DNA from: Escherichia phage ALITA
Length of the DNA stretch: 64,000 nt
Sequence record: PP359570
Reading direction: 5' to 3' (one strand)
Shown: piece by piece, positions 44,906 to 63,036 of the stretch
Position numbering within the stretch: position 1 is the stretch's first letter
Layout: every line of letters begins with the position of its first letter
Notes under the pieces: model-generated
Told to the model about the DNA's origin: nothing
The model's database searches: none
The model's input: the letters and a program-made list of their open reading frames with translations, nothing else
Program-made: the position numbers and the translations under genes

Positions 44906-45046
44906 TCTGATAAATCTCCGGCTGGAACTACTGCCAATGTATTCAAATTAACTCCGACTACAACCTCTGGTAGTCATATCTTAACTGCAACATATACTAA
45001 CGCGTACAACATATCTGCCGGACGTAACTGGTCTGCCTCTGTTTTC

Positions 45047-45565
45047 TTGAAAGCGAACGGGATCACTAAGGCCAAACTAAGATTAAAAGCAGGAACTGAA
45101 GTTAATGAGGGTACTTTTGATTTAGCAGCAGGTACATTCACAGGAAGTGAAGCTAATATTATATCTATGGGCAACGGTTGGTATCGTGCTATTCTGCATA
45201 AAACAGGGATAGCCAAACAGTCCTCCATAAGTTTTGAAATAATTGCCTTGGATGCAACTGGTGCGGAGATTTTCGCTGGAGATGGTACTAGTAACCTTGC
45301 AGTTTGGTTGCCACAGCTTGAAGGTGCTTCTACAGGAGAAACATCAAAAGCTGGATCGCCTTATGTCTGCACATATCCTGGAAATTTAGGAGGAGTATCC
45401 TTCACTATACCAAGGAACGGACATACTGGTGTGGATGTTTACTATTCCAACGGAGACGTTGTTCGTGACGTATTCTCTGGTACGGCATCTACTTGGACAA
45501 TAAACTACTCCAGCTTGTACGATTGGGGATCAGTCTTTATTACAGGTTTGAAATATTACGACTAA
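45047..45565 (+). CDS. ORF in the same frame as the upstream tail fibre gene, separated only by a TAA (possible read-through extension, C-terminal domain gene or pseudogenised 3' part)
   Basis: 44906-45046 contains 47 sense codons in frame with 42746..44905; first conventional start is TTG 45047 without SD. Confidence 0.3.
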   Translation: MKANGITKAKLRLKAGTEVNEGTFDLAAGTFTGSEANIISMGNGWYRAILHKTGIAKQSSISFEIIALDATGAEIFAGDGTSNLAVWLPQLEGASTGETSKAGSPYVCTYPGNLGGVSFTIPRNGHTGVDVYYSNGDVVRDVFSGTASTWTINYSSLYDWGSVFITGLKYYD

Positions 45566-45567
45566 TA

Positions 45568-45597
45568 AAAAAGGAGCCATTAGGCTCCTTTTCTTTT
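45568..45597. terminator. bidirectional rho-independent terminator between convergent gene blocks
   Basis: AAGGAGCC-ATTA-GGCTCCTT hairpin flanked by AAAAA upstream and TTCTTTT downstream. Confidence 0.65.
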
Positions 45598-45600
45598 ATC

Positions 45601-46032
45601 TTAGTCAGTGAAAATTACGCTTACATCTTCTTTAGAAAAGAGTTTATGATCTTCACCTTTTGTCTCAAGAGTTTCATACAGATTAAGAAGTTCTGAAACA
45701 TCTTTCTCTACCAGTTTCTTCAATGTTGCAATTTTCTGTTTGCGACTCTTAATACGTTCAGCTACAACCTTACGCTGGTATCCGGCAGTACGATAACCTG
45801 AGAAAGTTACACCAGTAAGGCTTGCAGTCACAGGATCGTAGTGACGTTCAATCTGAAACTTATTAAAAGGTACAGCGTCATCACGAATAATCTTACCGCC
45901 ATTACTTACCTGACGAAGACCAGTAACTTGCTCCAGTCGTGCCATAGAAATCTTTGGAGACAGACCAGAGTCCAGGTTCATACCATTGTTAATCAGTGCT
46001 TTCAGGGTGATTTTGCTGTTCAGTGTACTCAT
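45601..46032 (-). CDS. hypothetical protein
   Basis: 143-aa ORF; 5' end overlaps methyltransferase gene 3' end by 44 nt. Confidence 0.45.
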   Translation of the reverse strand: MSTLNSKITLKALINNGMNLDSGLSPKISMARLEQVTGLRQVSNGGKIIRDDAVPFNKFQIERHYDPVTASLTGVTFSGYRTAGYQRKVVAERIKSRKQKIATLKKLVEKDVSELLNLYETLETKGEDHKLFSKEDVSVIFTD

Positions 46033-46720
46033 TTAGTCGTTCCTCCGCTTGCTTAAAAATATTTACATCGGCTTCACAGCCTAAGTATTCTCTACCTGTT
46101 AAAAGTGCCGCAACTTGTGTTGTTGCACTTCCAGAGAAGAAGTCTAAGACTACATCTCCTTCGTTGGTGTGTATATTAATAAGGTCACAAAACAAAGTCA
46201 AGTGTTTTTGTGTTGGATGAAAACGATCTGCTCCTTGATAGATAGGATACTCAAACACACCCTTATGGTAGGAAGCATTGAAGGTTGGCTTCGAACCTTT
46301 AACACAAACAATAGCCATCTCTTTAGCGTTACTAAGGTAGTTAACACCACTGTTGATGGGTACAGGGTTTGTTTTAATCCATTCGATAGTACGGAACATA
46401 CGAAAACCAAGCGGTTCAAGGATTTCACGTAGCTCCTGGATCTTCCAGATATCATACCAAACTATGCAAGTACCACCTTTTCTAAGCACCCTGTAGGCTT
46501 CTTTGAATACTTCTTTAAAGTAAGGAATATCTACAACATCCCAATCACCGAAGTTGTAAGATACACGGAATCTATCCGTATCTTTTCCAGTCGGCTCTCC
46601 AGATTGAAAATTTGTGTCACGAGAAATAGCATATGGTGGGTCAGTAAGAATCAAATCTACACTATTGCTTTCGAGGGTTTGCAGGTAGTTTAATGCGGTG
46701 TTGTTTACAAATTCGCTCAT
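45989..46720 (-). CDS. DNA methyltransferase, beta class (N6-adenine or N4-cytosine)
   Basis: 243-aa ORF; DPPY motif (LILTDPPYAI) near N-terminus and AdoMet-binding FFSGSATT near C-terminus; SD aaggag. Confidence 0.85.
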   Translation of the reverse strand: MSEFVNNTALNYLQTLESNSVDLILTDPPYAISRDTNFQSGEPTGKDTDRFRVSYNFGDWDVVDIPYFKEVFKEAYRVLRKGGTCIVWYDIWKIQELREILEPLGFRMFRTIEWIKTNPVPINSGVNYLSNAKEMAIVCVKGSKPTFNASYHKGVFEYPIYQGADRFHPTQKHLTLFCDLINIHTNEGDVVLDFFSGSATTQVAALLTGREYLGCEADVNIFKQAEERLNEYTEQQNHPESTD

Positions 46721-48919: not shown

Positions 48920-51499
48920 CTAATGACAAGACGCCCATGAGTTACCAACATCGTAACCAGCAGTGAGAGGTACATTAAGATTGTAATACTCACCAGCTTT
49001 ATTAACAGCGATAGATGCTAATTCTCCAGCACGACTGTAGGCTGTAAACCAACCACCTTTCGGAGATTCATGTACGTTAGCCCAAATCTTGCCAGTACGT
49101 TTCTCTTCCTCTTCTTTCCAGGCATTAACCTTATCCAAACATTCTTTATCAATTTTCTTTTGTTCTTCTGGATCATCAACTTGAGTCCAACCTAAAGATT
49201 CTTTAGAGAACCATTTAAAATGCACCAGATCACGAGTTACTTCAAGCTGTGCTTCATCGTGATATGCAATCATTTGTTGAACGAATGACTTATTTTTCCA
49301 GTCATCAACAAAAAAGTCAACAGCTAATCCTTCTTCTTCGATAAGATCGTCGTAGATAACCATTGCTCTTTTTGCACAAATAACACCACCACTCTGGAAC
49401 AGAGAGTTAAGTATTGCGTGTGCAGATCGTGTAGGTACTTTCCTACCATCAATACCAAGAATGTATTTCTTACCTGTTTTAACCCAAAAATCATGCAGAC
49501 GTTCTTTAAGAAGCGCAAGAGGTTTTGCAGCTTCCCAGAAAGCATCGTATACAAGCTGTCCTGTATACATATCACTACCTATAGTTTTTGCTACTTTTGC
49601 AGCTTGAGCACCATAAGTAATACCATACTTAACAGATTTAGCAGGGCTTCGTTCAAACTTACGACCAATAGTGTCAGAAATACGTCGAGCCATCATTGTA
49701 TGAACATCATTAGGTTTTTCCAATAATAGAGCATTACAATATTCGTGTGGTTCCTGCTCGTACCGCCAACAGTAGTGTGATTCTATTTTTGCCTCAAGAG
49801 AATCAAAGTCATAACCAATTTGGAAGTATTTTGGAACTTCTACACCAAATAAGTTACGCATTTCATATCCGTACAGAGATGTTACACGTGGGATATTTGC
49901 TACTAACCTATGTTTCATACGAGACGTAGCTGCATCACACGTTGCAGCAGGAGTTGGTATACGACCATCAGCCCTTACTGCTGCCAGATAACCTTTATCG
50001 TAATCCTCTTCATCTTCTTCCCAATCAGCACCACCCCCTAGAATAGAGTTCCTACGGTGTTTATACGTAAGATACTGCACAATCTGCGTAGCATAAGGAA
50101 ACTTTTCACCTAGTGCTTCCAAGTTAGGACAAATATCTTTCTCTTGCCCTTTTGTAAAGGAAGGGTTAGTAAGCACTTTAACACCACGACCTTTAGCTTT
50201 AGCAATACGATCTCTTAGTTTCCATTCCAAAGTTTCTGGTGTGCACTCCAGATGATCACATCTGTCCTGGCAGAAGTTAGATGCTAACGTTTGATCAACA
50301 TAGTCACGAATAGCTTTCTCCATCTGTGCTTCATCTTTCTTAATCTTAGTGCCAGATTTAAGAGTGATATCTTTATCTTTATATTCAGATGGACTCCAAC
50401 CTAAACCAACTAACCAATTTTTAATATGTGTAGTGTCGTCTAAAGTAGCAGGTACTGTAGGATCACAAATAGGTTCTTCTGCTGGAATAGGCAGTTTAAA
50501 CTCTTTACCTAATGCAAATAACCACCAACCATCTTCTTTTTGTACAAGTTCACCAGAATGTTTCTCTGCAAACTTTATCATGTTACTTGAAGGTTCACCA
50601 TTCTTTTTAAACTGTAGTTTAGGTGGAATGAATGATTTCAAATAACCTTTAGTAGCAGGTTTAGGAGGTAGCACAGGTTCTGCCTCTAAACGACATGCTT
50701 CCATTCGAGCATCCAGATCACGAATATTATCTTCTGCTTGCTTCATATTGAAAGCAAAGCCACGGTGCTCTTGACGTGTAATAATATCAGCTACACGTTG
50801 TTCTAAGTTAAATGGTTCAGACCACTTATTATAATCACCCCACTCTTCCATCAAATAACGGAACACTGCGGTGTTAGCTTTGTTATCGTAAATACAGTAA
50901 TACAGCATATCTGCTGCAAATGTTTTAAATCTTTCAGTTTCAGGGATGTTTTTTCTAAAATCAATTTTAACATCCCCTCCAGCTTTCTTAGATAACTCTG
51001 CCAGACTATGACCACCGAAGCGATCAGGGTTTAGTGTCTTACTTAAGATCATAGTATCACAAATTTCAATGTTACTATTACCCCAAGTATTGTACTTAAT
51101 ACTGTAGTTGAGTTTAAAAAATAATTTAATTGCCAGTAAGTCAAAGTTAATGATGTTATGTCCAACTACTTTGGTAATTTTATAGTTTGAATTACCTTTA
51201 AATTTACCTGTTCCATTTACAAAATCAGGAAAATCTTTAAGAGGGAAATGGGTATATTCTAAATGCTCATATTCCTCCAGTCGGTATTCATACTTTCCGT
51301 CAGTCTCAATATACGGACGACCATCGAAAAGATATTTATCACCATCATGGAAAGCAATAATCTCTCCAGTATCATGACTTTCGCACACAATACAGTGCAT
51401 TGCAAAACTATCTTTTAAACGATATGGACTTGCCAAGTAATCTACACTTTCGTCATTAAGCAAGTTGTTACTTTCAATGTCGAAAGTAAAAGCTCCCAT
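48920..51499 (-). CDS. DNA polymerase, family A, with 3'-5' exonuclease domain
   Basis: 859-aa ORF; N-terminal exo motif FTFDIES, motif B-like KSVKYGITYGAQAAK, motif C MIAYHDEAQLEV; strong SD. Confidence 0.9.
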   Translation of the reverse strand: MGAFTFDIESNNLLNDESVDYLASPYRLKDSFAMHCIVCESHDTGEIIAFHDGDKYLFDGRPYIETDGKYEYRLEEYEHLEYTHFPLKDFPDFVNGTGKFKGNSNYKITKVVGHNIINFDLLAIKLFFKLNYSIKYNTWGNSNIEICDTMILSKTLNPDRFGGHSLAELSKKAGGDVKIDFRKNIPETERFKTFAADMLYYCIYDNKANTAVFRYLMEEWGDYNKWSEPFNLEQRVADIITRQEHRGFAFNMKQAEDNIRDLDARMEACRLEAEPVLPPKPATKGYLKSFIPPKLQFKKNGEPSSNMIKFAEKHSGELVQKEDGWWLFALGKEFKLPIPAEEPICDPTVPATLDDTTHIKNWLVGLGWSPSEYKDKDITLKSGTKIKKDEAQMEKAIRDYVDQTLASNFCQDRCDHLECTPETLEWKLRDRIAKAKGRGVKVLTNPSFTKGQEKDICPNLEALGEKFPYATQIVQYLTYKHRRNSILGGGADWEEDEEDYDKGYLAAVRADGRIPTPAATCDAATSRMKHRLVANIPRVTSLYGYEMRNLFGVEVPKYFQIGYDFDSLEAKIESHYCWRYEQEPHEYCNALLLEKPNDVHTMMARRISDTIGRKFERSPAKSVKYGITYGAQAAKVAKTIGSDMYTGQLVYDAFWEAAKPLALLKERLHDFWVKTGKKYILGIDGRKVPTRSAHAILNSLFQSGGVICAKRAMVIYDDLIEEEGLAVDFFVDDWKNKSFVQQMIAYHDEAQLEVTRDLVHFKWFSKESLGWTQVDDPEEQKKIDKECLDKVNAWKEEEEKRTGKIWANVHESPKGGWFTAYSRAGELASIAVNKAGEYYNLNVPLTAGYDVGNSWASCH

Positions 51500-51995: not shown

Positions 51996-53768
51996 TTAAT
52001 AAGAACCAGCAGAAATATTTTCTGGGTTACTTGTGTATTGATCGTAATCGTGAAGTGTAGCTGTTTTAATCTCATAGAAGAAACTACCTGCTGCACCAGT
52101 CTCTGAGAACTCACGGTTCTTTAGAATGTAGCAATATGTGCGGTTACGTTCCATAGGATCTTCAGCTTGTTTATCACGCTCCAGCGCAATTGTGATACCA
52201 GCACCTTTAGCAAGGAAGCTACTACCCATTGCATCATCTTCTACAATATGTTCATTACTATTGTTAGAAGACTTTTTAACGTGTGAAATTACAACAATGG
52301 TTATTGCATACTCTTTCATAATGCGTTTCAGCCACGTCGCAAGTTCCTCTTGTTGTGACACGTCCATACCAGAAAGCAAATCAGAATAAGGGTCGATAAC
52401 AAGAATGGTTACTCCGAAATAAATAATCATTTCCAGAACCTTCTCTTTAATCACATCTACGTTAGCTCCACGATCATCACAAACATAGAAACGTGGTGTT
52501 CCATCTTCTCGTTCGTAAAAATCACGAATCTTTTCTTCATTATCTTTTAAAATCTTTTCCTTCTCTTCTTTCGTTTTACGGTGAAGAGGGATATGCAAGA
52601 ATGAAGACAGTAAGTTACGAGAATACTTCTTATACGTTGCCTCCAAAGATAAAATACCAAGAGTATGTTCTGGGTGTGCAAGAATAATGTGTTTCGTAAT
52701 CTCGTTAACCAACAGTGTCTTACCGATACTTGTTTTTGCAAGTATAACAGTAATTTCTTCTTCTACCAAGCCTCCACCTAACATATTCGAAGCAACACGC
52801 ATGAATGGAGGAAGGGTGATCATTTTAGCTTCCAGGCATTCCAAGGCTGCTTCATATAGTACGTTAGAAGCGTAAACACCAGCAGGTGTGTACAGTTTAG
52901 CTTTGAAAAAGCGATCAATAAAATGATCAATTTTTCCTTCTACTAGTGCCTGGTTAGGATCTTTAACATCCGTTAGTTCCATCACGTAAACTTTATTACG
53001 TGGTAAGATTTTAACACATTTCTCAACTGCTGCACGTCCAGCTTCATCATTATCCATACATAGAACAATCTTTTTAAATTGATCTAAGAATTTATAACGA
53101 TGTTGAAGCTGCTTATGCAGAGATGTTTCGCCACAAGTACCAGATACTACAGCAGGAACAGGATATTTACCACCCTTGTTATAATCTTTTAGCATCTGTG
53201 TTGCAGCCAGCATATCGTGTTCACCACCAACGATTAGAATAGTACCGCTGTGGTTACGATATTTAAACTCCCCAAAAAGATCACAATCCTTTCCTGTTTC
53301 ACCGATAGGATGTGAGAAATCTTTTGGATCGATACGTTGTTTATACCCAGCAATATTGTAATCTTTAGTTGTAGGGTATAGTGTTGAAATTACTTCGCCA
53401 GTAGCTTCATCGTACATATAACGTACACCGAAAGGCTTAGAGATATCTTCACGAATACCGCGATAACCTTTTGGATTAGTTCCAGTGCTGGCTTTTAGTT
53501 TATCATGTACTTCTGGATTAAACTCACTACCCAAGATATCCTCCTCTTCAATTTCTTCGCCGTGTGCATTTAACCATTTTTGATCAGGGATAGTAAAGCC
53601 ACAAGAAAAACAATGTGCGCCTCGATGGTCTTCATCGGCATCTAAGCCATATACCATCAAATTGTTTTGTGATCGATCACGCCCTCCTTTCATACAACGA
53701 GGACACCCAGTATGTCCTTCTTGACTTAGATCAATGTTATACCCATATTTATTTACAACATAAGACAC
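51996..53768 (-). CDS. DNA primase-helicase (zinc-binding N-terminus, TOPRIM primase, SF4 helicase)
   Basis: 590-aa ORF; CPRC...CFSC zinc finger, TOPRIM-like ILIVGGEHD...CMDNDEAG, Walker A AKTSIGKT. Confidence 0.85.
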   Translation of the reverse strand: MSYVVNKYGYNIDLSQEGHTGCPRCMKGGRDRSQNNLMVYGLDADEDHRGAHCFSCGFTIPDQKWLNAHGEEIEEEDILGSEFNPEVHDKLKASTGTNPKGYRGIREDISKPFGVRYMYDEATGEVISTLYPTTKDYNIAGYKQRIDPKDFSHPIGETGKDCDLFGEFKYRNHSGTILIVGGEHDMLAATQMLKDYNKGGKYPVPAVVSGTCGETSLHKQLQHRYKFLDQFKKIVLCMDNDEAGRAAVEKCVKILPRNKVYVMELTDVKDPNQALVEGKIDHFIDRFFKAKLYTPAGVYASNVLYEAALECLEAKMITLPPFMRVASNMLGGGLVEEEITVILAKTSIGKTLLVNEITKHIILAHPEHTLGILSLEATYKKYSRNLLSSFLHIPLHRKTKEEKEKILKDNEEKIRDFYEREDGTPRFYVCDDRGANVDVIKEKVLEMIIYFGVTILVIDPYSDLLSGMDVSQQEELATWLKRIMKEYAITIVVISHVKKSSNNSNEHIVEDDAMGSSFLAKGAGITIALERDKQAEDPMERNRTYCYILKNREFSETGAAGSFFYEIKTATLHDYDQYTSNPENISAGSY

Positions 53769-53780
53769 AGGATTCTCCTA

Positions 53781-54050
53781 CTAAAATGATTCGTTTGTCT
53801 CCATAATATATTGCATTTCCAAATCTTCCATATGTTTCTTAAATTGGTAAACAATTTCCGATGGGGAAATATCTATATCAAAAAGTTCTTTTGTACCAGA
53901 ATAAAACCTAATACCATCAACAATAAGACCACCATAATAATCCCAATCACTTTCTCGTGAGAAAGGGTTAGGTTCTTCATAATAGTAATCTACTTCAACA
54001 ATAATAGGTTCTTTATTATCTTGTTTATACTCAAAATCAAAAGTGTGCAT
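53781..54050 (-). CDS. hypothetical protein
   Basis: 89-aa ORF with SD, start overlaps stop of upstream gene. Confidence 0.45.
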   Translation of the reverse strand: MHTFDFEYKQDNKEPIIVEVDYYYEEPNPFSRESDWDYYGGLIVDGIRFYSGTKELFDIDISPSEIVYQFKKHMEDLEMQYIMETNESF

Positions 54051-54985
54051 TATAAATCCTCGATAAGCAGTCTGCGGGTTTCATTTAAATTGTAGTTATC
54101 TCTTACATACTTAGCAAGAGCCAATCCTTTCTCAATACAAACATCAGGGGATTCGATTAAGTATTCTACAATATCTTTCCACTCTTTAACTGAATCAGCA
54201 AAGAAGATTAGATCTTTAAATTCTTCAGTATAATAGTTCTCTCGTGGCGAACAAACGAGTGGCAAACCTTTAGCACCAGCTTCAAGAATTTTTAAATTAC
54301 TTTTGGCATTATTAAAATGATTATTTACTAATGGAGCTATGGAGATTTGATGACCATCGTATGCTTCCATATAACACTCATAAGGACGAATACCTTCATA
54401 AACACAATCTGGTTGAATATTTTCTTTAATTTGCAACCATTGAGCACTACTTAACTCTTCGTGATCTCTACGAAATCCACATAAAGTTAAATCTTTACCA
54501 AAATCAGGAAGAATTGCTAAATCATGTTTATGTGTTTCACTTCCCGCCCAAACCAGTGGACTTTTAGAATAACGATCTTTAGTAAGAACAAACTGTCCTT
54601 CATCAAAAGGTAGTCCGTTAGGCACAATATGTACATTATCATTGTATTGGCTTAATTCAACCTTTAATGCCGGAGTTGTTGTAGTTACAAGATCACTTCT
54701 TTCAAGGAACCATTTTAGGTCATCTCGGATTTGATTTTCAAATAATCCTTCAAGCATATGCCCTTCAGGAATAATTAAAGAATCATCCAGATCCATTACC
54801 AATTTAAACCCAAGTTGTTTAAGAGCCAGGAAACCTGGCTTTCCACGTGTTGGTACTCCATTGAACACAAAAATATTATGCTTAGGATTAATTGTCAGTT
54901 TGCGTTTATATGGCAAAATGATTCTATGAAAATCACATACACTATACTTTTCATTTCCGCGTGTGTCAAGAATAATATTAGGCAT
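54050..54985 (-). CDS. putative GT-B-fold glycosyltransferase (paralogue A)
   Basis: 311-aa ORF; C-terminal KSNLKILEAGAKGLPLVCSP resembles GT-B nucleotide-sugar-binding motif; clear paralogue of the next gene. Confidence 0.5.
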   Translation of the reverse strand: MPNIILDTRGNEKYSVCDFHRIILPYKRKLTINPKHNIFVFNGVPTRGKPGFLALKQLGFKLVMDLDDSLIIPEGHMLEGLFENQIRDDLKWFLERSDLVTTTTPALKVELSQYNDNVHIVPNGLPFDEGQFVLTKDRYSKSPLVWAGSETHKHDLAILPDFGKDLTLCGFRRDHEELSSAQWLQIKENIQPDCVYEGIRPYECYMEAYDGHQISIAPLVNNHFNNAKSNLKILEAGAKGLPLVCSPRENYYTEEFKDLIFFADSVKEWKDIVEYLIESPDVCIEKGLALAKYVRDNYNLNETRRLLIEDL

Positions 54986-54996
54986 ATATCTCCTTG

Positions 54997-55971
54997 TTAA
55001 AGACTTTCAATAACTTGACGACGCAGTTCATTGGCATCTGCAAGATTATAATTAAGACGAACGTGTTCTGCAAGCATCATACCACGATCTTCTGTGTATC
55101 TAGGGTTCCTCATTAGCTTGACAACTTCATAATGCCAAGATGCTTTAGAGTCTGCATAGATAACAGCCTTTGCATCTACCGGATTGAAGTACGGCAGCAC
55201 AGGAGAACAGATAATAGGAAGACCCTTTGCACCTGCTTCCAAAATCTTCAAATTGCTTTTACAGTTGTTGAAGTCATTATCTACCAGGGGAGCAATTGCA
55301 ATACTGTGACCGTCATACACAGACATATACTCACCTAAATTTTTAATAGCTGGTTTATACTGTGCATTTGGAATCTTACGTTTTATTTTAACCCACTCCG
55401 CAGTAGTTAGATACTGACTATTATTTCCAACAGGTGCAGAAGGATACACTTCATACCCTGCAATTGTCAATAGTGTATCATCAAATGTATTAGCTACAAG
55501 AGATAAATCAGGTTCGTGGCTTGCTCCTCCAGCCCAGATAATAGGCGTGTCAGAATTACGGTCTTTTGTCAAAGTAAATTGACCTTCGTCGTAAGGTAGT
55601 GCGTTTCTAATAACGACAACATTACGATTTAAATGACGAATTTTGTAAGCTAGGTATTCTGTTGTTACAGTAACAACATCTGCTAACTTGACCATCTCTA
55701 CAATAGTCTTTGAGTGATTAGTAAATACGCCAGCCATATAATGTTCAGGATTAAGTGAATAAAAATCATCTAAATCAACAATAATCTTAACACCTTGTGC
55801 CTTCAGGCGTTTAACCTCGTCTGCTCCACGAGAATACACTCTATTAAAAACTAAAACGTCTTTCTTAGGTTTAAACGTATTTCCAGCAAATGGCATTACA
55901 ATACGATGGTAATCACAACCACTGCCTAACTTATTATCACACTTAAGTACAGGAGTATTAGGATTTACCAT
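54997..55971 (-). CDS. putative GT-B-fold glycosyltransferase (paralogue B)
   Basis: ATG 55971 after SD gaggagg; shares CD(F/Y)HRI, LP(F/Y)DEGQF.LTKDR, YDGH.I.IAPLV, KSNLKILEAGAKGLP blocks with paralogue A. Confidence 0.5.
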   Translation of the reverse strand: MVNPNTPVLKCDNKLGSGCDYHRIVMPFAGNTFKPKKDVLVFNRVYSRGADEVKRLKAQGVKIIVDLDDFYSLNPEHYMAGVFTNHSKTIVEMVKLADVVTVTTEYLAYKIRHLNRNVVVIRNALPYDEGQFTLTKDRNSDTPIIWAGGASHEPDLSLVANTFDDTLLTIAGYEVYPSAPVGNNSQYLTTAEWVKIKRKIPNAQYKPAIKNLGEYMSVYDGHSIAIAPLVDNDFNNCKSNLKILEAGAKGLPIICSPVLPYFNPVDAKAVIYADSKASWHYEVVKLMRNPRYTEDRGMMLAEHVRLNYNLADANELRRQVIESL

Positions 55972-56644
55972 ATTTTTGAGCCTCCTCATAAGAGATAAAA
56001 GTTTTACCATTGCGAAGATCCTCCAGTGATTGTTTATATTGTTCCCAGTTTACACCAATCCCCTGTTCTTTCTCTTCTTTTGACAGATTCGCAAAAGGTA
56101 AAGGATTATCTCCAAATACATCATCAGGATGGATAAACGCCATAATTCGAATAGGACATGGCACGCCTTGAATACCTCGGTTCAAACCTGCCAGTGGAAC
56201 GCGATGAATCCACTCTGCATCTTCATATCCATAACCGTGGGTGTATGAGCGGAAATAGCCAGCTTTCTCAATAACTGCACGGGAATACATACCAAACTGG
56301 CACATACCTAGTTCCCAAATAACCACTTCCCCTTCAATACCTTTTACTTTATCTTTAAAGTATTCAGGCATACCAAAGAAATCCCAACCATTTTCCTTCG
56401 CCTGTTTTACAAAATATGTTTCCCAACCTTGAACAACAGGATAGCAATCATCATCAAAAATAAACCAGTAATCATACCCTTCATCATAAAACTTTTTCAT
56501 CAGTTCATTACGAGCATATGCAACACCTTTTCGTTCCCGATCATACTGTACAACAAAAGTAGCATTAGGATCAGTCACAAGATAATCTTTAAGAGGACGC
56601 TTACCTACAGTAATAACACCAACACCAATTTTTGTATTTTCCAA
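55958..56644 (-). CDS. putative GT-A-fold glycosyltransferase
   Basis: 228-aa ORF; DxD-type motif FIFDDDCYP and downstream GYGYEDAEW resembling GT-A acceptor-side motifs. Confidence 0.5.
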   Translation of the reverse strand: MENTKIGVGVITVGKRPLKDYLVTDPNATFVVQYDRERKGVAYARNELMKKFYDEGYDYWFIFDDDCYPVVQGWETYFVKQAKENGWDFFGMPEYFKDKVKGIEGEVVIWELGMCQFGMYSRAVIEKAGYFRSYTHGYGYEDAEWIHRVPLAGLNRGIQGVPCPIRIMAFIHPDDVFGDNPLPFANLSKEEKEQGIGVNWEQYKQSLEDLRNGKTFISYEEAQKYGKS

Positions 56645-56653
56645 AATAACTCC

Positions 56654-57217
56654 TTAAATAATTTTATTCATGTCTTGACAATGTAAAAGGTGTGAAATAG
56701 CTTTTCTAGGATCATCATTACCTAAACGGTATGTGTGAAATAAATATAACCCACGTAGTAAACCTAGCCTTTTATTGTTAGCGTGCAATGCTTTAGAGAA
56801 AATTATATCAAACTGTATTGATCTTTCCTCAAAAGGGATTTCATTCCACAGACTCTTACGAAAGAGAAGAAAGAATCCTGCTAAGATAGCATCTGTAGGT
56901 ACTTCCTCTATTGAGTTTCCCCATTCTAGATGTGCTCTTTTTGCAATCTCAATGTGGTGTAATATATTCGGATCTTCACTTCTTTCATTATTAAATAATT
57001 GATATGTTGATCCCAATCTATTACAAGATGCACCAAGAACATCAAAATCAGGATTTGAACGGACTATTGATTCCAGCCAAGCAGGTTGTTCTGGAAGAAG
57101 AAACATTGTATCAATGTCTCTTAGGCAAATCCAACTATCTTCTGGTAAGACACTTATTGTGTCATTGATACCTTTTCCAATATCTCCAGAAAGATAGGGA
57201 GTTATGTGAAATATCAT
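56654..57217 (-). CDS. possible glycosyltransferase-like protein (DxD motif)
   Basis: 187-aa ORF; ICLRDIDTMF; assignment weak. Confidence 0.3.
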   Translation of the reverse strand: MIFHITPYLSGDIGKGINDTISVLPEDSWICLRDIDTMFLLPEQPAWLESIVRSNPDFDVLGASCNRLGSTYQLFNNERSEDPNILHHIEIAKRAHLEWGNSIEEVPTDAILAGFFLLFRKSLWNEIPFEERSIQFDIIFSKALHANNKRLGLLRGLYLFHTYRLGNDDPRKAISHLLHCQDMNKII

Positions 57218-57965: not shown

Positions 57966-58475
57966 TTAGCGATAAAATTGATGTTCTTTGTAGCGGTACA
58001 CTAGAACCATATCTTTTTCCCAGTGTGCTCTTATTGTAGATTTTTTAAAGTATAATGCTCCTTTTGTAATATCTAATGCAATTCGTAATTCTGGAAAATG
58101 CGTATCGAGATAAAGTAGACGTTCTGCTATAGCCTTAGCTTCCTTCCACTTATCACGTTCCATAACGTTGAATGTCTTTGTGTAAGAGAATTGTCCTTTT
58201 TGAAACAAAACTTCTTTTATAGTATCAGGGAAATATGAATCTCTAGCCCTATTCAATACTACATTACCAACAGCAGACATACCGCGCTTTCCTTGATTAC
58301 GACTTTCTGCATAGATTGCACAAGCTAATAGATTTTCTTTACTATCACGCTTTGTACACTTGTGAACTACTTTAGCAGTTTTTACGTTTGCAGCTTCGGC
58401 TTGCGCCACAACAGGTGTAAATGTAAAAGCAGTTAAGGATAGTAACGCAATTGCGACAAAGGTTTTTATTGACAA
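57966..58475 (-). CDS. secreted cell-wall hydrolase (SleB/CwlJ-type Hydrolase_2 family), candidate endolysin
   Basis: 169-aa ORF; N-terminal signal peptide ending AQAEA; motif CAIYAESRNQGKRGMSAVGNVVLNRA...FPDT...FQKGQFS. Confidence 0.6.
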   Translation of the reverse strand: MSIKTFVAIALLSLTAFTFTPVVAQAEAANVKTAKVVHKCTKRDSKENLLACAIYAESRNQGKRGMSAVGNVVLNRARDSYFPDTIKEVLFQKGQFSYTKTFNVMERDKWKEAKAIAERLLYLDTHFPELRIALDITKGALYFKKSTIRAHWEKDMVLVYRYKEHQFYR

Positions 58476-58567
58476 ACTTGCCTCCTATTTTGTTAAACGA
58501 ACTTTTATTGTAACACAGAAGAGGCTGTTTTGCAAGTGGAGGGGGATAATCCCCCTCTTACATTCTG

Positions 58568-59197: not shown

Positions 59198-59213
59198 GCG
59201 CCCCGAAGGGCGC
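59198..59213 (-). terminator. hairpin / terminator after TerD-like gene
   Basis: GCGCCC-CGAA-GGGCGC with A/T-rich flanks. Confidence 0.45.
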
Positions 59214-59222
59214 TATGATTTA

Positions 59223-59819
59223 TTACTCGAACCAATCGTCGCCAGCGCCAAACGCTTTAACTACATCATAAATGTCAAGTCCAGCTTTACCTACACCATA
59301 TGCTTTCAGTTTCCATTCGCTATCTTCCCGCACCAGGGAGGCAACGTGGCAAATGGTATTACCTGCAAGTTCTGGAGCCAAGAAGTCAAAATCCAGCAGT
59401 TCAACGTTACGTTCATCATCGAAGATTTTAAGGAAACCTTCGGTAGCGTGACCAAGGCGTTTCTTACCCGTTTCGTCATCAATAGTGATTACGAATGCAA
59501 TTTCCTGTGCTTCAGCAGAGATATTATCCAGTGTAACATCAATCTGCTCCATTTGTCCTACACCGTCACGAACATCTTCACCTGCAAAAGTAGAACGTTC
59601 AGGATCAAATTTCTGTGCGTAGCATACCAGGTGGCGAGGAGACAACAGTTCCGGCAGACCAGATGCATTGTGTCGGCAAATCAGAGCACTAACATCCAGA
59701 TCCAGTTTTTCGTTAGATTTCCAAGAGAATTCCAGACGAATGCGTTTCAGTGCTGGTGCAATCTTTTTCAGAGAAACTTTTTCGCTAGAACCTTTTTTCA
59801 GGGAAATTTTCTGAGTCAT
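59223..59819 (-). CDS. TerD-domain protein
   Basis: 198-aa ORF with SD; ISLKKGSSEKVSLKK, LDLDVSALICR, GEDVRDGVGQMEQIDVTL, IAFVITIDD, EWKLKAYGVGKAG match TerD-family architecture. Confidence 0.75.
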   Translation of the reverse strand: MTQKISLKKGSSEKVSLKKIAPALKRIRLEFSWKSNEKLDLDVSALICRHNASGLPELLSPRHLVCYAQKFDPERSTFAGEDVRDGVGQMEQIDVTLDNISAEAQEIAFVITIDDETGKKRLGHATEGFLKIFDDERNVELLDFDFLAPELAGNTICHVASLVREDSEWKLKAYGVGKAGLDIYDVVKAFGAGDDWFE

Positions 59820-59891
59820 AATTTATTATCTCCTTTGTTGTTAATTTACGTTGTCTATTTTACTAATCTTTTCTACAAAGTCAAGCGTTTT

Positions 59892-60686
59892 TTACGCTTT
59901 TGCTCCAAATTTTTTAACCCACTCGCCAAACTCTTCGGATAGCAGTTTATCGTAAAGTTCTTCGTCAGACAAGGACAAATCTGCAATACCGATAAAATCA
60001 ACGTTATCGTATTCTTTTGCCAAGTCTTTCAGGAATTTAAAGTTTGCATTACCTACACCAACCATAAACCAGTAAACAGGAGTGTTGCGGTGTTTGTTCA
60101 GCAAACTACGTACTGCTGAAGTATCCATGTTCTCCCCGTCAGTTTGGAAGAAAATCATTGCAGGAGTACGATCAACTTGTGCATCAGTATCTACAACCTG
60201 TTCTACAACAGTACGTGTAACTTCTACACGTTCTTTTTTACCAGTTAGTTTAGCAAGGAAACCCTTAGCCGGAACTTCTTCATACTCAACGACTTCGCGT
60301 GTAATATTTTTCATAGGTACACTACCGAAGTATGTATCATAGATCTCTTGCATTACTGGAGCATAAGCTGTACCACCATTGATGCAAACATTAGACATAC
60401 AAGAGCCGACATAATCATCATATACATCAGCCGTTGCAGGAGGCAGTTCAAAAGAAGAACTATTGAAAGCCCACATGTCAATCTGTGCATTATCATCAAA
60501 CTTCATACCAAACGGCAGCAGCTTACCTACAAAATCACTAACAGTGCCATCACGATACAGCTCACACATACTACCCGAAATATCTAAGGCGCTACCGACA
60601 CGAAGAACAACATCGTTAATCTTTTTCTTACGCAGAGATACGGTAAGAGTTTCTTGACGTTTTTTAAGACTGATTTTATTGGACAT
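59892..60686 (-). CDS. von Willebrand factor A (vWA) domain protein, TerY-like
   Basis: 264-aa ORF with SD; MIDAS motif DISGS plus downstream Thr and Asp (GGTAY, QTDGE). Confidence 0.65.
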   Translation of the reverse strand: MSNKISLKKRQETLTVSLRKKKINDVVLRVGSALDISGSMCELYRDGTVSDFVGKLLPFGMKFDDNAQIDMWAFNSSSFELPPATADVYDDYVGSCMSNVCINGGTAYAPVMQEIYDTYFGSVPMKNITREVVEYEEVPAKGFLAKLTGKKERVEVTRTVVEQVVDTDAQVDRTPAMIFFQTDGENMDTSAVRSLLNKHRNTPVYWFMVGVGNANFKFLKDLAKEYDNVDFIGIADLSLSDEELYDKLLSEEFGEWVKKFGAKA

Positions 60687-60687
60687 A

Positions 60688-60957
60688 TTATTTCTCCTTT
60701 CTGAGTGTAATGTTAGTAACTTCTAAATCCACTTCTACCACTTCTGTATCATATAAAATACAGTTAAGTTGACCTCTTTGTGAACCGTTCAGACACATTG
60801 CTTGGTTTGTATTAACCTTAATAAACACTAAGTTTCTGAACGTATCTAAACCAGCATCTTGATAGGCAACATAATATACGAATGTATCACCTGTGTCAAG
60901 TTCTCCAAAACATTTAGGTTCATCTGATTTGTCGTCTTTGATATTAAATTTAAGCAC
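60688..60957 (-). CDS. hypothetical protein
   Basis: 89-aa ORF. Confidence 0.4.
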   Translation of the reverse strand: MLKFNIKDDKSDEPKCFGELDTGDTFVYYVAYQDAGLDTFRNLVFIKVNTNQAMCLNGSQRGQLNCILYDTEVVEVDLEVTNITLRKEK

Positions 60958-61513
60958 TGTCTTCTCCTTTACCTGCTCTCAAGCCTAAATAGAAAGCCTC
61001 TCTGGTGATCTTTTGCAACTCGTTTAAAGAGATAGTTACAACTAAATCATCTTCAATTTCTAGCTTTGAGTCTTCTTCTGTCTCAATGCAAGTATTATGC
61101 ACTTTGTGGTAAGGATTGTCAACACGTTTAAATTTATTATTTTCAGTGCTGAAGAAGCAATCTGGATCTTCTTCCCCATCACCCCAACCCTGGTTAGGAT
61201 CTTCTTCAGATCTTTCTGTTGGGATCTCGCCTGTAAAGTGCTCTTCTAATACCAGAGCAATCCCATCTCCAAGATCGGAAGAGAACATCAAATTACAAAC
61301 TTCTTCCCAAGGCATAGACCACTTAAATCTTTTACGATTGCCATGTTTATCTTCTTCGTTAGAGAAAACACTACCATAGCTATCATAATTCCCATACATC
61401 TCTTCGACAACCTTACCACCTTTCAAAAGAAATAGGTAGCAAGGAGAGCCATCGAAAGAGGTAGAAAGAGCAGCATTACCAGACTCTTTGCACAAGAAAC
61501 TAAAACACCCCAT
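60950..61513 (-). CDS. hypothetical protein (acidic)
   Basis: 187-aa ORF. Confidence 0.4.
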   Translation of the reverse strand: MGCFSFLCKESGNAALSTSFDGSPCYLFLLKGGKVVEEMYGNYDSYGSVFSNEEDKHGNRKRFKWSMPWEEVCNLMFSSDLGDGIALVLEEHFTGEIPTERSEEDPNQGWGDGEEDPDCFFSTENNKFKRVDNPYHKVHNTCIETEEDSKLEIEDDLVVTISLNELQKITREAFYLGLRAGKGEDSA

Positions 61514-61713
61514 TATACACCAGCCTTAAGATCAATTAAAGCCAAAGTTGTTTCAGAGTGTGTTTGCTCGTCTACAGGTGCAGTCATATGATAATACAAA
61601 AAATCTTCGGCATCATACCAATCTGATTCTTGACCTTGTTTCCAACCATCAATGAAAGCATCTTCCATAATGGTTTGCAATTCTTCACGAGTTAAGTGAA
61701 TATCTTTACTCAT
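61513..61713 (-). CDS. hypothetical small protein
   Basis: 66-aa ORF. Confidence 0.35.
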   Translation of the reverse strand: MSKDIHLTREELQTIMEDAFIDGWKQGQESDWYDAEDFLYYHMTAPVDEQTHSETTLALIDLKAGV

Positions 61714-61946
61714 TACACATTCTCCTCTTTTACCAATTCCATTGTTGAATTGTCAAAACCATCTTTAGAAGAATAGGTATAGACAGCACGTAGTTCTCGC
61801 AGGACAGTGAATACATTAGGATCATCTAACCAAGCATCCTGGAGGAGAACATAACGATCTTCATTGTCATACTGGACAGCAATCATAGAGCCAGACAGTT
61901 TGTAAATTTTAATATTCATAATATATTTCTCCTTAAAGTAGACCAC
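61713..61946 (-). CDS. hypothetical small protein
   Basis: 77-aa ORF. Confidence 0.35.
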   Translation of the reverse strand: MVYFKEKYIMNIKIYKLSGSMIAVQYDNEDRYVLLQDAWLDDPNVFTVLRELRAVYTYSSKDGFDNSTMELVKEENV

Positions 61947-63036
61947 GTTTAACAGTTTGAATCATACCATCTTCAAGAGATTGCACTTCTTGAATGTAAT
62001 CAATACGAGCAGCACGGGCTTCAGTGTTGATTCGGTTAGTTTCTTCCAACATTTTAACTAAGTTTTCTTGATCACGACGCAATGTTTCAATATCCAATAC
62101 TTGACGATTAGCAAGTTGTGTAGCTTCAATCTGGTTTTGTGCAGCCAGATCACTACCCATTGCAATAGCAGCATTAAATTCATTCAGTACGTTGTTCTGT
62201 GTATCGGCTGCTTTCTTCTGGCGCAGACTTTCAATATACATAGAAAAGTTTGCAGAGTAAGCAGGAATAACATTGTTCACAATATTACGGGCTGATCGCA
62301 TCAAACTTGCAGATACTTTCTGCATACTTTGTACACGTGGCCCCATCTGAACGCACAGTAAGCGTAAGGCTTTCAGGTCTGCAATACGAATTTCAAGCAG
62401 ATCCATAGTGTCACGAGTACGTTGACGCTCTTCTACTTCATTTTCAGGTAGTGTATTAAGGCGAACTTCTTCTTTTTCATAAGTAGCTGTTAGAAGCTCT
62501 ATATCCCTGTTTAAGCTAAGAGCATATTTTGCAATAGCCTCCTCTAAACGTTGCAGATATCGTAAAGAATCTTCTTCTTTTTTCAAGTCTGTTTGGAGTG
62601 TCTTTACCAAACCCTCAATACGATTATTGATGGTGTCAAATTCTCCAAACAAATCTTCTTTCATACCTAATACTTTCTTAACTAACTTACCTAAACCTTT
62701 AGATTGTTTAATAGAATTAGGATCAAGTTGCTTTGCTTGCTTAATAAGTGCAGTTAAACGTTCACTCATTTCATCTCCCTGAGATGAACGCTGGTGTTTA
62801 AGCACTTCAGCATTAAGGTTACGAAGAGTAAGTCCTGCATCAGCACCAACTTGTTCAATCTCTTCACGAGACATTGGAGGCAGCATTTGTACAGGTCGTG
62901 CAACAGCAGGGGCATATACAGGACTTGCATCCATAGCACTTGGAGCAAACAAAGACTTACTTTTTTCTGTTGTTGCCGTGAATACACTCATTTCAGACGG
63001 TTTGCTTTTTACGGCACTGATAAAAGGACTGGACAT
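61933..63036 (-). CDS. helical coiled-coil protein, possible TelA/KlaA-like (toxic anion resistance family)
   Basis: 367-aa ORF with SD ggagg; long predicted helices; family assignment based on size, composition and co-location with TerD and vWA genes. Confidence 0.3.
   Translation of the reverse strand: MSSPFISAVKSKPSEMSVFTATTEKSKSLFAPSAMDASPVYAPAVARPVQMLPPMSREEIEQVGADAGLTLRNLNAEVLKHQRSSQGDEMSERLTALIKQAKQLDPNSIKQSKGLGKLVKKVLGMKEDLFGEFDTINNRIEGLVKTLQTDLKKEEDSLRYLQRLEEAIAKYALSLNRDIELLTATYEKEEVRLNTLPENEVEERQRTRDTMDLLEIRIADLKALRLLCVQMGPRVQSMQKVSASLMRSARNIVNNVIPAYSANFSMYIESLRQKKAADTQNNVLNEFNAAIAMGSDLAAQNQIEATQLANRQVLDIETLRRDQENLVKMLEETNRINTEARAARIDYIQEVQSLEDGMIQTVKRGLL

Follow-up and report, generated by a model that had tools for sequence, protein, structure and literature searches.

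Phage glycosylation systems and the ALITA locus

Several viruses are equipped with glycosyltransferases (GTs) of their own. In the mycobacteriophages Che8 and Boomer, soluble enzymes of this kind (Che8 gp108-110, Boomer gp102-105) are clustered outside the structural operon, and a passage in a paper citing Freeman 2023 describes Che8 gp110 as essential for capsid glycosylation (PMC12363180). The DNA-modifying enzymes of the TAGT, T6 and T4 systems are likewise phage-encoded, soluble proteins of GT-A or GT-B fold, sometimes grouped in multi-enzyme clusters near replication genes. Giant viruses use enzymes of this kind on structural proteins of their own, with rhamnose as one of the sugars attached, as exemplified by PBCV-1 A064R. 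The window analysed here, a stretch of 64,000 nucleotides from Escherichia phage ALITA (sequence record PP359570), carries on its minus strand a cluster of four open reading frames (ORFs) assigned to GTs: ORF4 (56654..57217, 187 aa), which is the first of the four GT genes, ORF3 (55958..56644, 228 aa, with a TTG start), ORF2 (54997..55971, 324 aa) and ORF1 (54050..54985, 311 aa). The cluster is best filed as an uncharacterised phage-encoded glycosylation module made up of ordinary enzyme types, and its products may decorate the virion itself.

The 3.8 kb surrounding the cluster are 98-99% identical to more than 50 sequenced Justusliebigvirus coliphages (subfamily Stephanstirmvirinae), including inny, alia, VEcB, EmilieFrey and phi92, and ORF1 to ORF4 are the counterparts of phi92 gp163, gp164, gp165 and gp166, respectively. 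Between Justusliebigvirus and Phapecoctavirus the four proteins keep 70-80% amino-acid identity. RefSeq labels all four genes of the relatives "glycosyltransferase", and the BASEL record of EmilieFrey lists two as "putative disaccharide synthase" and two as "putative glycosyltransferase"; their identities were already present in public annotation before this analysis. No experiment on the four genes was found in the literature, where published comment is speculative. Olsen et al. noted a dTDP-rhamnose (dTDP, deoxythymidine diphosphate) pathway and speculated on rhamnosylation of hydroxymethylated nucleotides (PMC7552041), Maffei et al. wrote of a "putative dTDP glycosylation machinery" in phi92-like phages (PMC8594841), and Vitt et al. 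repeated both points (PMC10844046). The rest of the genome was surveyed on the near-identical complete genome of EmilieFrey (98.5% identical at the GT locus), whose full annotation was read, and the genome-wide statements below refer to it.

Compared with the mycobacteriophage loci, the ALITA cluster has the same general design, with several soluble GTs placed outside the structural operon and GT-A enzymes of GT2, GT7C and GT25 type. Sequence similarity links the ORF3 family to the N-terminal domain of Boomer gp102 (27% identity, E 6e-13), and the Boomer locus also encodes gp105, which is 82% identical to Che8 gp110; the resemblance does not, however, extend from ORF1-4 to Che8 gp108-110. Moreover, the ALITA locus lacks a methyltransferase domain, has two additional GT-B enzymes, belongs to a phage of a Gram-negative host and is known from its genes alone. 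Giant viruses share with it virus-encoded GT-A enzymes and sugar-nucleotide pathways, and the ORF3 fold matches GT2/GT25 proteins of Megavirus, Tupanvirus and Pithovirus, although this similarity is confined to the fold, and both host and virus class differ.

A proposed module for virion-protein glycosylation

The reading placed first, with a probability of about 40%, is that the acceptor consists of one or more virion proteins (capsid, tail or fibres), which would be decorated with an oligosaccharide; it draws by analogy on gene context and distant homology. It is put first because homologues recur beside head modules, because of the link to mycobacteriophages, and because no DNA-hydroxylating enzyme was found. 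Further support comes from distant relatives of the GT-B enzymes, in which the domain is fused to TPR protein-interaction repeats (fusions to methyltransferases also occur), and from a Burkholderia homologue located beside an adhesin gene.

In the proposed mechanism, the four genes would equip a virulent phi92-like myovirus with a glycosylation module acting in the cytoplasm; they would share transcripts with the replication genes and apparently be coupled to them in translation. At least one of the enzymes would use dTDP-L-rhamnose supplied by the phage's own rmlABCD genes, while other sugars would be drawn from the host nucleotide-sugar pool. Working sequentially, the enzymes would assemble, on a macromolecule serving as acceptor, a short oligosaccharide with at most about four residues. 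The core of this pathway would be the adjacent pair of ORF3-type GT-A and ORF2-type GT-B enzymes that recurs in unrelated phages, with ORF1, a duplicate of ORF2, and ORF4 supplying further steps. As in Che8, virion proteins would receive their sugars in the cytoplasm, either ahead of assembly or in its course, and the particle would thereby be coated or shielded. A broader proposal, in which a virulent coliphage makes dTDP-L-rhamnose to coat its capsid, tail or fibres and the GT-A and GT-B pair marks a system for glycosylating virions that is widespread but has gone unrecognised in phages of both Gram-negative and Gram-positive hosts, is tentative and rather doubtful.

Homologues in other phages

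Adjacent genes for an ORF3-type GT-A and an ORF2-type GT-B enzyme occur in three further lineages, with identities to the window genes of 47% and 52% (L010), 35% and 46% (L015), and 26% and 37% (L018) for the GT-A and GT-B partner, respectively. Recognition of this pair as a conserved two-gene unit is new here and may be useful as a marker. In L018, a phage of about 36 kb, the pair opens an operon that continues with the small terminase, large terminase, portal, protease and capsid genes and diverges from the replication genes. Comparable arrangements are found elsewhere. L020 has a GT-B gene, an acetyltransferase gene and a GT2 gene immediately ahead of the terminase genes; in the Streptomyces phage Zuko, an epimerase gene and a GT-B homologue immediately precede the terminase, portal and capsid genes; and in L008 an ORF4 homologue lies between the terminase and the portal and capsid genes, surrounded by genes for a GT2 enzyme, a polysaccharide deacetylase, two Methyltransf_24 proteins and a UDP-galactopyranose mutase. 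Adjacency to terminase, portal and capsid genes has therefore been observed in four unrelated phage lineages.

Other homologues belong to larger glycan clusters or to replication neighbourhoods. An ORF4 homologue heads a 10-kb glycan cluster in L012, comprising GT-D, TOD1/MUCI70, DegT, epimerase, Methyltransf_24 and Stealth genes. Che8 gp108, a fusion of GT2 and Methyltransf_24 domains, recalls the partners seen in L008 and L012, and by this analogy the large clusters with O-methyltransferases resemble virion-protein glycosylation loci. L011 combines two GT-B genes, a GT2 gene and amino-deoxy-sugar synthesis genes near replication genes. In L009 and L010, a GT-B gene is followed by an 83-aa ORF and a Toprim/DnaB_C primase-helicase gene, in the same order as in the window, and the small ORF is also present in Klebsiella phage KP2025.

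A bacterial homologue was also noted on a Burkholderia dolosa contig (L007; JAIMDN010000082, 3025-8440). It encodes a GT-B protein with 44% identity to ORF2 and an N-terminal extension of about 100 aa, and it directly follows the gene for an inverse autotransporter of the intimin/invasin type (853 aa) and an overlapping gene for a 571-aa protein with no assigned function. This may be an adhesin-glycosylation locus.

The GT-A enzymes and the case for DNA as acceptor

ORF3 and ORF4 were shown by structural modelling to be GT-A-fold nucleotide-sugar transferases with an invariant DxD motif; the two are mutually unrelated, and both are predicted to be soluble, ORF4 being a small protein. ORF3 contains the motifs FIFDDDCYP and GYGYEDAEW, in which D64-D65-D66 and G139, E141 and D142 are invariant among 17 homologues, and it matches phrog_2456, labelled glycosyltransferase, at 2e-79. 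ORF4 carries the motif RDIDT, where D34 and D36 form the DxD; these residues, together with N66, R67, H161 and H176, are invariant in 25 homologues. It has no Pfam match but corresponds to phrog_14179, also labelled glycosyltransferase (5e-113). The sequence-only reading had singled out these acidic motifs as signs of GT-A enzymes, describing the DID of ORF4 as the weaker one, and the conservation and the models bear it out for both proteins. No NCBIfam model covers any of the four GT proteins, and single-sequence searches of the PDB with ORF1, ORF3 and ORF4 returned nothing meaningful. Structure prediction was needed for the GT-A enzymes because sequence searches of the PDB failed to place ORF3, even its family profile finding no glycosyltransferase there.

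The AlphaFold models of ORF3 and ORF4 have mean predicted confidence (pLDDT) values of 90.2 and 92.5, respectively, and every significant PDB match of either model is a GT-A enzyme, with K4CP among the polysaccharide enzymes. Matches of ORF3 include STIV A197, WrtF, TarP and COLGALT1; among predicted viral structures it is closest to unnamed phage proteins (template modelling (TM) score 0.71, E 7e-12) and also matches giant-virus GT2/GT25 enzymes. The top match of ORF4 is Listeria RmlT, a dTDP-rhamnose rhamnosyltransferase (E 1.7e-4, TM 0.47), followed by LARGE1, LH3 and TarS. RmlT, a GT2 enzyme, has the GT-A fold and DxD in common with ORF4, and an rml pathway is encoded in the same genome as ORF4; the likeness remains at the level of the fold, however, with 16% identity and with ORF4, at 187 aa, lacking the C-terminal domains of RmlT. 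Because PDB TM-scores reach only about 0.45-0.55, neither ORF3 nor ORF4 is close to a characterised enzyme.

The human collagen glycosyltransferases LH3 and COLGALT1 appear among these fold matches. The window also encodes, at 40745-42706 on the plus strand, a lateral tail fibre with short collagen-like stretches rich in G-D-K and G-E-K, such as KGDKGDKGDKG and KGEKGDKGDKGDQGEQGIQGLTGPTGAG. Glycosylation of this fibre in the collagen manner by the GT-A enzymes is a weak lead: its repeats are G-D-K and not G-x-T, and no lysyl hydroxylase was found.

It is ORF3 that brings phage DNA into consideration as an acceptor. The enzymes could glycosylate bases, giving rhamnosylated hydroxymethylated nucleotides, possibly at a subset of sites, an idea already proposed in print (PMC7552041, PMC10844046). 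ORF3 approaches the Pfam family TAGT (PF20691) with 24.1 bits against a cut-off of 27.5 (E 3.9e-5) and a PHROG of the T6-type beta-glucosyl-HMC alpha-glucosyltransferase (HMC, hydroxymethylcytosine) at 4e-5. The TAGT alignment pairs residues 16-79 with positions 37-100 of the 205-position model, and so covers only the N-terminal half, which is the generic nucleotide-binding part. Within the ORF3 family of 17 members, TAGT is matched weakly by 11, Glycos_transf_2 by five and Glyco_transf_7C by four, the match of ORF3 being the best of those to TAGT. TarP, one of the structural neighbours of ORF3, is the best PDB match reported for phage DNA GT-A enzymes, whose active-site motif is R...DDD...EDY/F (Pyle et al., bioRxiv 10.1101/2023.12.21.572611). 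ORF3 possesses the R, DDD and ED parts of this motif, and R45, D64-66 and E141-D142 are conserved in its family; the residue that follows ED varies (A, S, T, I, V or G) and is not Y/F, and GT2 and GT7 enzymes have motifs of a similar kind. Elsewhere, di- and trisaccharides are assembled on 5-hydroxymethylcytosine by multi-enzyme clusters (Pyle et al., bioRxiv 10.1101/2023.12.21.572611). In this phage, the GT genes adjoin those for primase-helicase and polymerase, the rml genes are placed among nucleotide-metabolism genes, and a Dcm-like C5 methyltransferase is encoded in the genome.

Against DNA stands the chemistry of the acceptor, as no route to a hydroxyl group was found. The curated EmilieFrey annotation contains no hydroxymethylase, and neither that annotation nor a set of 20 of the larger unannotated proteins includes a TET/JBP protein or other 2-oxoglutarate-dependent oxygenase, the small ORFs having been partly scanned. 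The thymidylate synthase is of the ThyX type rather than the ThyA or hydroxymethylase type. The genome-wide search for hypermodification genes that the sequence-only reading had suggested thus came back empty for hydroxymethylase and TET, and revealed a complete dTDP-rhamnose pathway instead. Nor does the visible 21 kb of the 36-kb phage L018, which has the GT-A and GT-B pair, contain a hydroxymethylase or TET gene. Unlike the glycosylated T-even phages, phi92-like phages are reported to be exceptionally susceptible to restriction-modification systems (PMC8594841). The four proteins match none of the Pfam families of the T4 alpha- and beta-glucosyltransferases at E-values up to 1, nor the corresponding PDB sequences, and three of the four are acidic, with isoelectric points of 5.2-5.6. 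The lack of any hydroxymethylase, TET or JBP enzyme among the proteins surveyed, the ThyX-type synthase and the reported restriction sensitivity make bulk DNA glycosylation unlikely, and DNA as an acceptor in any form, including sparse modification at particular sites, is judged improbable. The position beside replication genes, from which the sequence-only reading had leaned towards DNA, was confirmed, whereas the target it hinted at was weakened by the missing hydroxylating enzyme and the restriction sensitivity; its decision to leave DNA, virion proteins and a host molecule all in play was sound.

The synthase itself, EmilieFrey bas61_0225 (L003, 9840-10811), is a 323-aa protein annotated as 'thymidylate synthase'. 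It matches only the FAD-dependent ThyX model, and that weakly, with residues 22-175 scoring 35.5 bits where the cut-off is 87.9; no domain is assigned to its C-terminal half. Judged by sequence, it is a divergent ThyX-like protein.

The GT-B enzymes and small or non-structural acceptors

ORF1 and ORF2 are paralogues, sharing 41% identity across 324 columns (E 1e-79) and the C-terminal motif KSNLKILEAGAKGLP(L/I)(V/I)CSP, and both match phrog_7162, named glycosyltransferase (1e-141 for ORF1 and 7e-149 for ORF2). Their relationship and the role of the motif in nucleotide-sugar binding had been read from the letters alone; the profile comparisons described below rest on this same motif, and profile and structure searches place all four ORFs among glycosyltransferases (PHROG E-values of 1e-79 to 1e-149, and GT-A models for ORF3 and ORF4). 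ORF1 reaches Pfam Glyco_trans_1_2 (PF13524) with 27.0 bits against a cut-off of 25, while ORF2 alone stays below the threshold. Among 41 family members, PF13692 is matched by 25, PF13524 by 13 and PF00534 by nine, which mostly represent the Glyco_trans_1 clan. A profile search of 1.84 billion representative proteins returned 3,805 clusters at E 1e-30 or better, most of which may be bacterial.

The family profile also matches GT4 enzymes with E-values of 1e-3 to 1e-5, including MshA (1.9e-5), TreT (1.5e-3), PglA and sucrose-phosphate synthase; the closest solved relatives are MshA, PglA, WbnH and TreT. In the alignment, KSNLKILEAGAKGLP..S corresponds to the C-terminal nucleotide-sugar-binding helix of MshA, TreT and PglA, and the K..K..EA.A.G.P helix motif of the GT4 enzymes aligns with both ORFs. 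The agreement is partial, since of the EX7E motif of retaining GT4 enzymes only the second Glu is present in ORF1 (E235, invariant), the position eight residues upstream being Ala or Asn, and the family has invariant N-domain residues of its own (R21, D67-D68, D98, N123, H152 and D155 in ORF1 numbering). Sequence comparison thus places ORF1 and ORF2 among GT4-like nucleotide-sugar transferases of the Glyco_trans_1 clan, with a predicted GT-B fold, but as relatives rather than typical members of GT4, because the first Glu of EX7E is absent. ORF1 is regarded as the derived duplicate because ORF2 is always nearer to outgroup homologues; ORF1 is less similar than ORF2 to every one of them, the identity of ORF2 to the single-copy genes being 52% in L010, 46% in L015, 44% in Burkholderia L007 and 37% in L018.

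The BASEL label "disaccharide synthase" probably reflects matches to enzymes of the trehalose and sucrose-phosphate synthase type. Together with those matches, it raises an acceptor of another kind, namely a host or phage non-structural protein modified in the manner of EF-P by EarP, an RNA or tRNA, or a free glycoside or metabolite tied to a Ter-like module. The phage encodes many tRNAs and tRNA-repair genes, and a module of TerD, vWA, TelA, TerC, phosphoribosyltransferase and HAD genes lies just upstream of the cluster. Such acceptors are considered distinctly improbable. The searches brought out no specific relationship to EarP, to small-molecule GT1 enzymes or to queuosine glycosyltransferases; a promoter-like site and a hairpin resembling a terminator lie between the Ter module and the GT operon; and other phages have the GT pair but no Ter genes. 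A functional link between the GT operon and the Ter module was rejected on these last two grounds.

Rhamnose as a likely donor and the case for the host envelope

A complete dTDP-L-rhamnose pathway (RmlB, RmlA, RmlC and RmlD) is encoded about 70 kb away from the GT cluster, among genes for glutaredoxin, ribonucleotide reductase, thymidylate synthase and thymidine kinase. Across 50,697 phage records, RmlA was found in 54 at 95% identity or more and in 73 at 60-80%, and ORF3 in 55 and 71 records in the same bands, which correspond to Justusliebigvirus and Phapecoctavirus. A more distant third lineage, Klebsiella phage KP2025 (L023, 112836-114244), is more informative for the link between the GTs and rhamnose. 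It has kept RmlC and RmlD at the syntenic site and lost RmlA and RmlB; an ORF4-like gene and a single GT-B gene are located at its primase locus, and an ORF3-like gene elsewhere. The intermediate dTDP-4-keto-6-deoxyglucose is produced by enterobacterial hosts in the synthesis of enterobacterial common antigen (ECA). With this intermediate supplied by the host, RmlC and RmlD would be the minimal addition needed for dTDP-L-rhamnose, which implies that KP2025 relies on the host pool and points to rhamnose as the product that matters. Rhamnose is accordingly a likely donor for at least one of the GT enzymes, because KP2025 keeps RmlC and RmlD and because the best fold match of the ORF4 model, although marginal, is a dTDP-rhamnose transferase. 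The co-occurrence of the GT module with a phage-encoded dTDP-L-rhamnose pathway in three lineages is reported here for the first time.

Four or five unannotated records labelled as Campylobacter phages, including MG065639 (A150) and MG065689 (A110a), match this coliphage at about 98% identity across its GT and rml genes. They list Campylobacter jejuni as host and are probably mislabelled or contaminant coliphage genomes.

The same precursor pool makes the host envelope another conceivable target. Soluble GTs at the cytoplasmic face of the inner membrane could modify the lipid A-core or undecaprenyl diphosphate-linked intermediates of ECA or O-antigen, and the resulting rhamnose-containing branches would mask glycan receptors, blocking superinfection or reducing the loss of progeny on debris. 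Phage RmlC and RmlD, the only two enzymes kept by KP2025, would tap the ECA precursor. The GT-B enzymes are GT4-like, and their relatives MshA, PglA, WbnH and TreT act on small molecules or lipid-linked sugars; among the GT-A matches are enzymes that work on teichoic acids and polysaccharides (TarP, TarS, RmlT, WrtF and K4CP); and the GT genes are expressed with early or middle genes. Phi92-like phages are also reported to recognise surface glycans and the lipopolysaccharide core (PMC8594841). This target, ranked second after virion proteins, is nevertheless held to be unlikely. The genome annotation offers no flippase, ligase or membrane protein for such a purpose, the strategy is typical of temperate and not of virulent phages, outer-membrane remodelling is slow for one lytic cycle, and homologues lying inside the head-morphogenesis operon of small phages (L008, L018, L020 and Zuko) are hard to reconcile with it. 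O-antigen conversion of the Gtr type, which the sequence-only reading had considered unlikely, finds no support either: none of the four proteins has a membrane-spanning hydrophobic segment (maximum of 1.2 or less in a 19-residue Kyte-Doolittle window), and no Gtr flippase or transferase genes occur in the neighbourhood or the genome annotation.

Points against virion glycosylation and its implications

Several observations weigh against virion proteins as the acceptor. In this phage the GT genes are placed with replication genes, not head genes, and even in the other lineages adjacency to head genes does not discriminate between acceptors, because Pyle et al. (bioRxiv 10.1101/2023.12.21.572611) find glycosyltransferases that modify DNA in the vicinity of terminase and structural genes as well. 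Comparison of ORF1-4 with Che8 gp108, gp109 and gp110 by blastp gave no significant similarity. Ser/Thr-rich tails reportedly carry the glycans in Che8, according to the 2023 work of Freeman et al.; no such terminal extensions were found on the capsid or tube proteins here, and the Ser-rich ends present among structural proteins, at one tail-fibre N-terminus (42746-44905) and the sheath C-terminus, are not convincing. With respect to rhamnose, the co-occurrence of RmlA and ORF3 largely reflects shared descent, amounting to about three semi-independent lineages, and the match of ORF4 to RmlT is marginal (TM 0.47), with other GT-A enzymes scoring alike. Glycoproteins of phi92-like phages are, finally, putative.

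The question of the acceptor has practical consequences, since phi92-like and phAPEC8-like phages have some of the broadest host ranges among coliphages and are components of cocktails for therapy and biocontrol. If virion proteins are glycosylated, the module would be the first of its kind in enterobacterial phages. It would then matter for antibody recognition, stability and pharmacokinetics, an argument already made for mycobacteriophages; a rhamnose coat could alter the immune recognition of phages in therapy cocktails. Modification of DNA would instead imply a chemistry that needs no known hydroxymethylating enzyme, and modification of host glycans would represent a receptor-masking strategy in a virulent phage.

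Operon organisation and neighbouring features

The four GT genes form an unbroken row with a conserved 89-aa ORF (53781..54050, minus strand; phrog_4240, function unassigned) and the primase-helicase gene (51996..53768, minus strand), which lies 12 nt downstream of the 89-aa ORF, is annotated in the relatives and provides transcriptional context outside the glycosylation chemistry. The DNA polymerase gene (48920-51499) is also on the minus-strand side, downstream of primase-helicase in the direction of transcription. All four GT genes were found on the minus strand at the positions given by the sequence-only reading, which had also correctly sited them upstream of primase-helicase and polymerase; the 89-aa ORF lies in between. 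The row is tightly packed, with intergenic gaps of 9-12 nt or overlaps: the start of ORF2 overlaps the stop of ORF3 by 14 nt, and the ATG of the 89-aa ORF overlaps the ORF1 stop codon by 1 nt. The mechanical ORF call and the GenBank/RefSeq relatives start ORF2 at ATG 56010, creating a 53-nt overlap with ORF3. The start at 55971, which the sequence-only reading had used, is better supported, and the public annotation of ORF2 is probably 13 codons too long, because a strong GAGGAGG Shine-Dalgarno sequence is located 9 nt upstream of ATG 55971.

A candidate sigma-70-like promoter (58507..58535, minus strand) consists of TTGCAA, a 17-nt spacer and TACAAT with an upstream TG, and is proposed from its consensus match; a terminator-like hairpin is located upstream of it at 59198-59213. 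This promoter could drive a unit composed of the gene for a SleB-like hydrolase, three small ORFs, the four GT genes and the primase-helicase gene. The SleB-like gene (57966-58475, minus strand), the first of the apparent GT operon, encodes a 169-aa protein that begins with a clear signal peptide, MSIKTFVAIALLSLTAFTFTPVVAQAEA, and contains a cell-wall hydrolase domain of the SleB type (Hydrolase_2, 6.5e-20); it is distinct from the annotated endolysin elsewhere in the genome. Such features would fit a secreted peptidoglycan hydrolase made together with early or middle gene products.

Beyond the hairpin, the minus strand of this virulent phage carries a Ter-like stress module, which extends from 59223 to 63036 and continues past the end of the window. 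It includes genes for TerD (59223-59819, Pfam 5e-28), a vWA-TerF-like protein (59892-60686, 7e-39) and TelA (61933-63036, 5e-34), and in EmilieFrey it goes on with genes for TerC (1e-38), a protein with a macrodomain, a phosphoribosyltransferase and a phosphatase of the HAD type. The 'alx-like ter cluster genes' of phi92-like phages have been mentioned in one paper. At the other side of the replication genes, the GC skew changes sign at about 45000-46000, at the boundary between the structural module on the plus strand (1 to about 45000) and the replication module on the minus strand, and a Dam-like methyltransferase gene (45989-46720) is located exactly at this junction.

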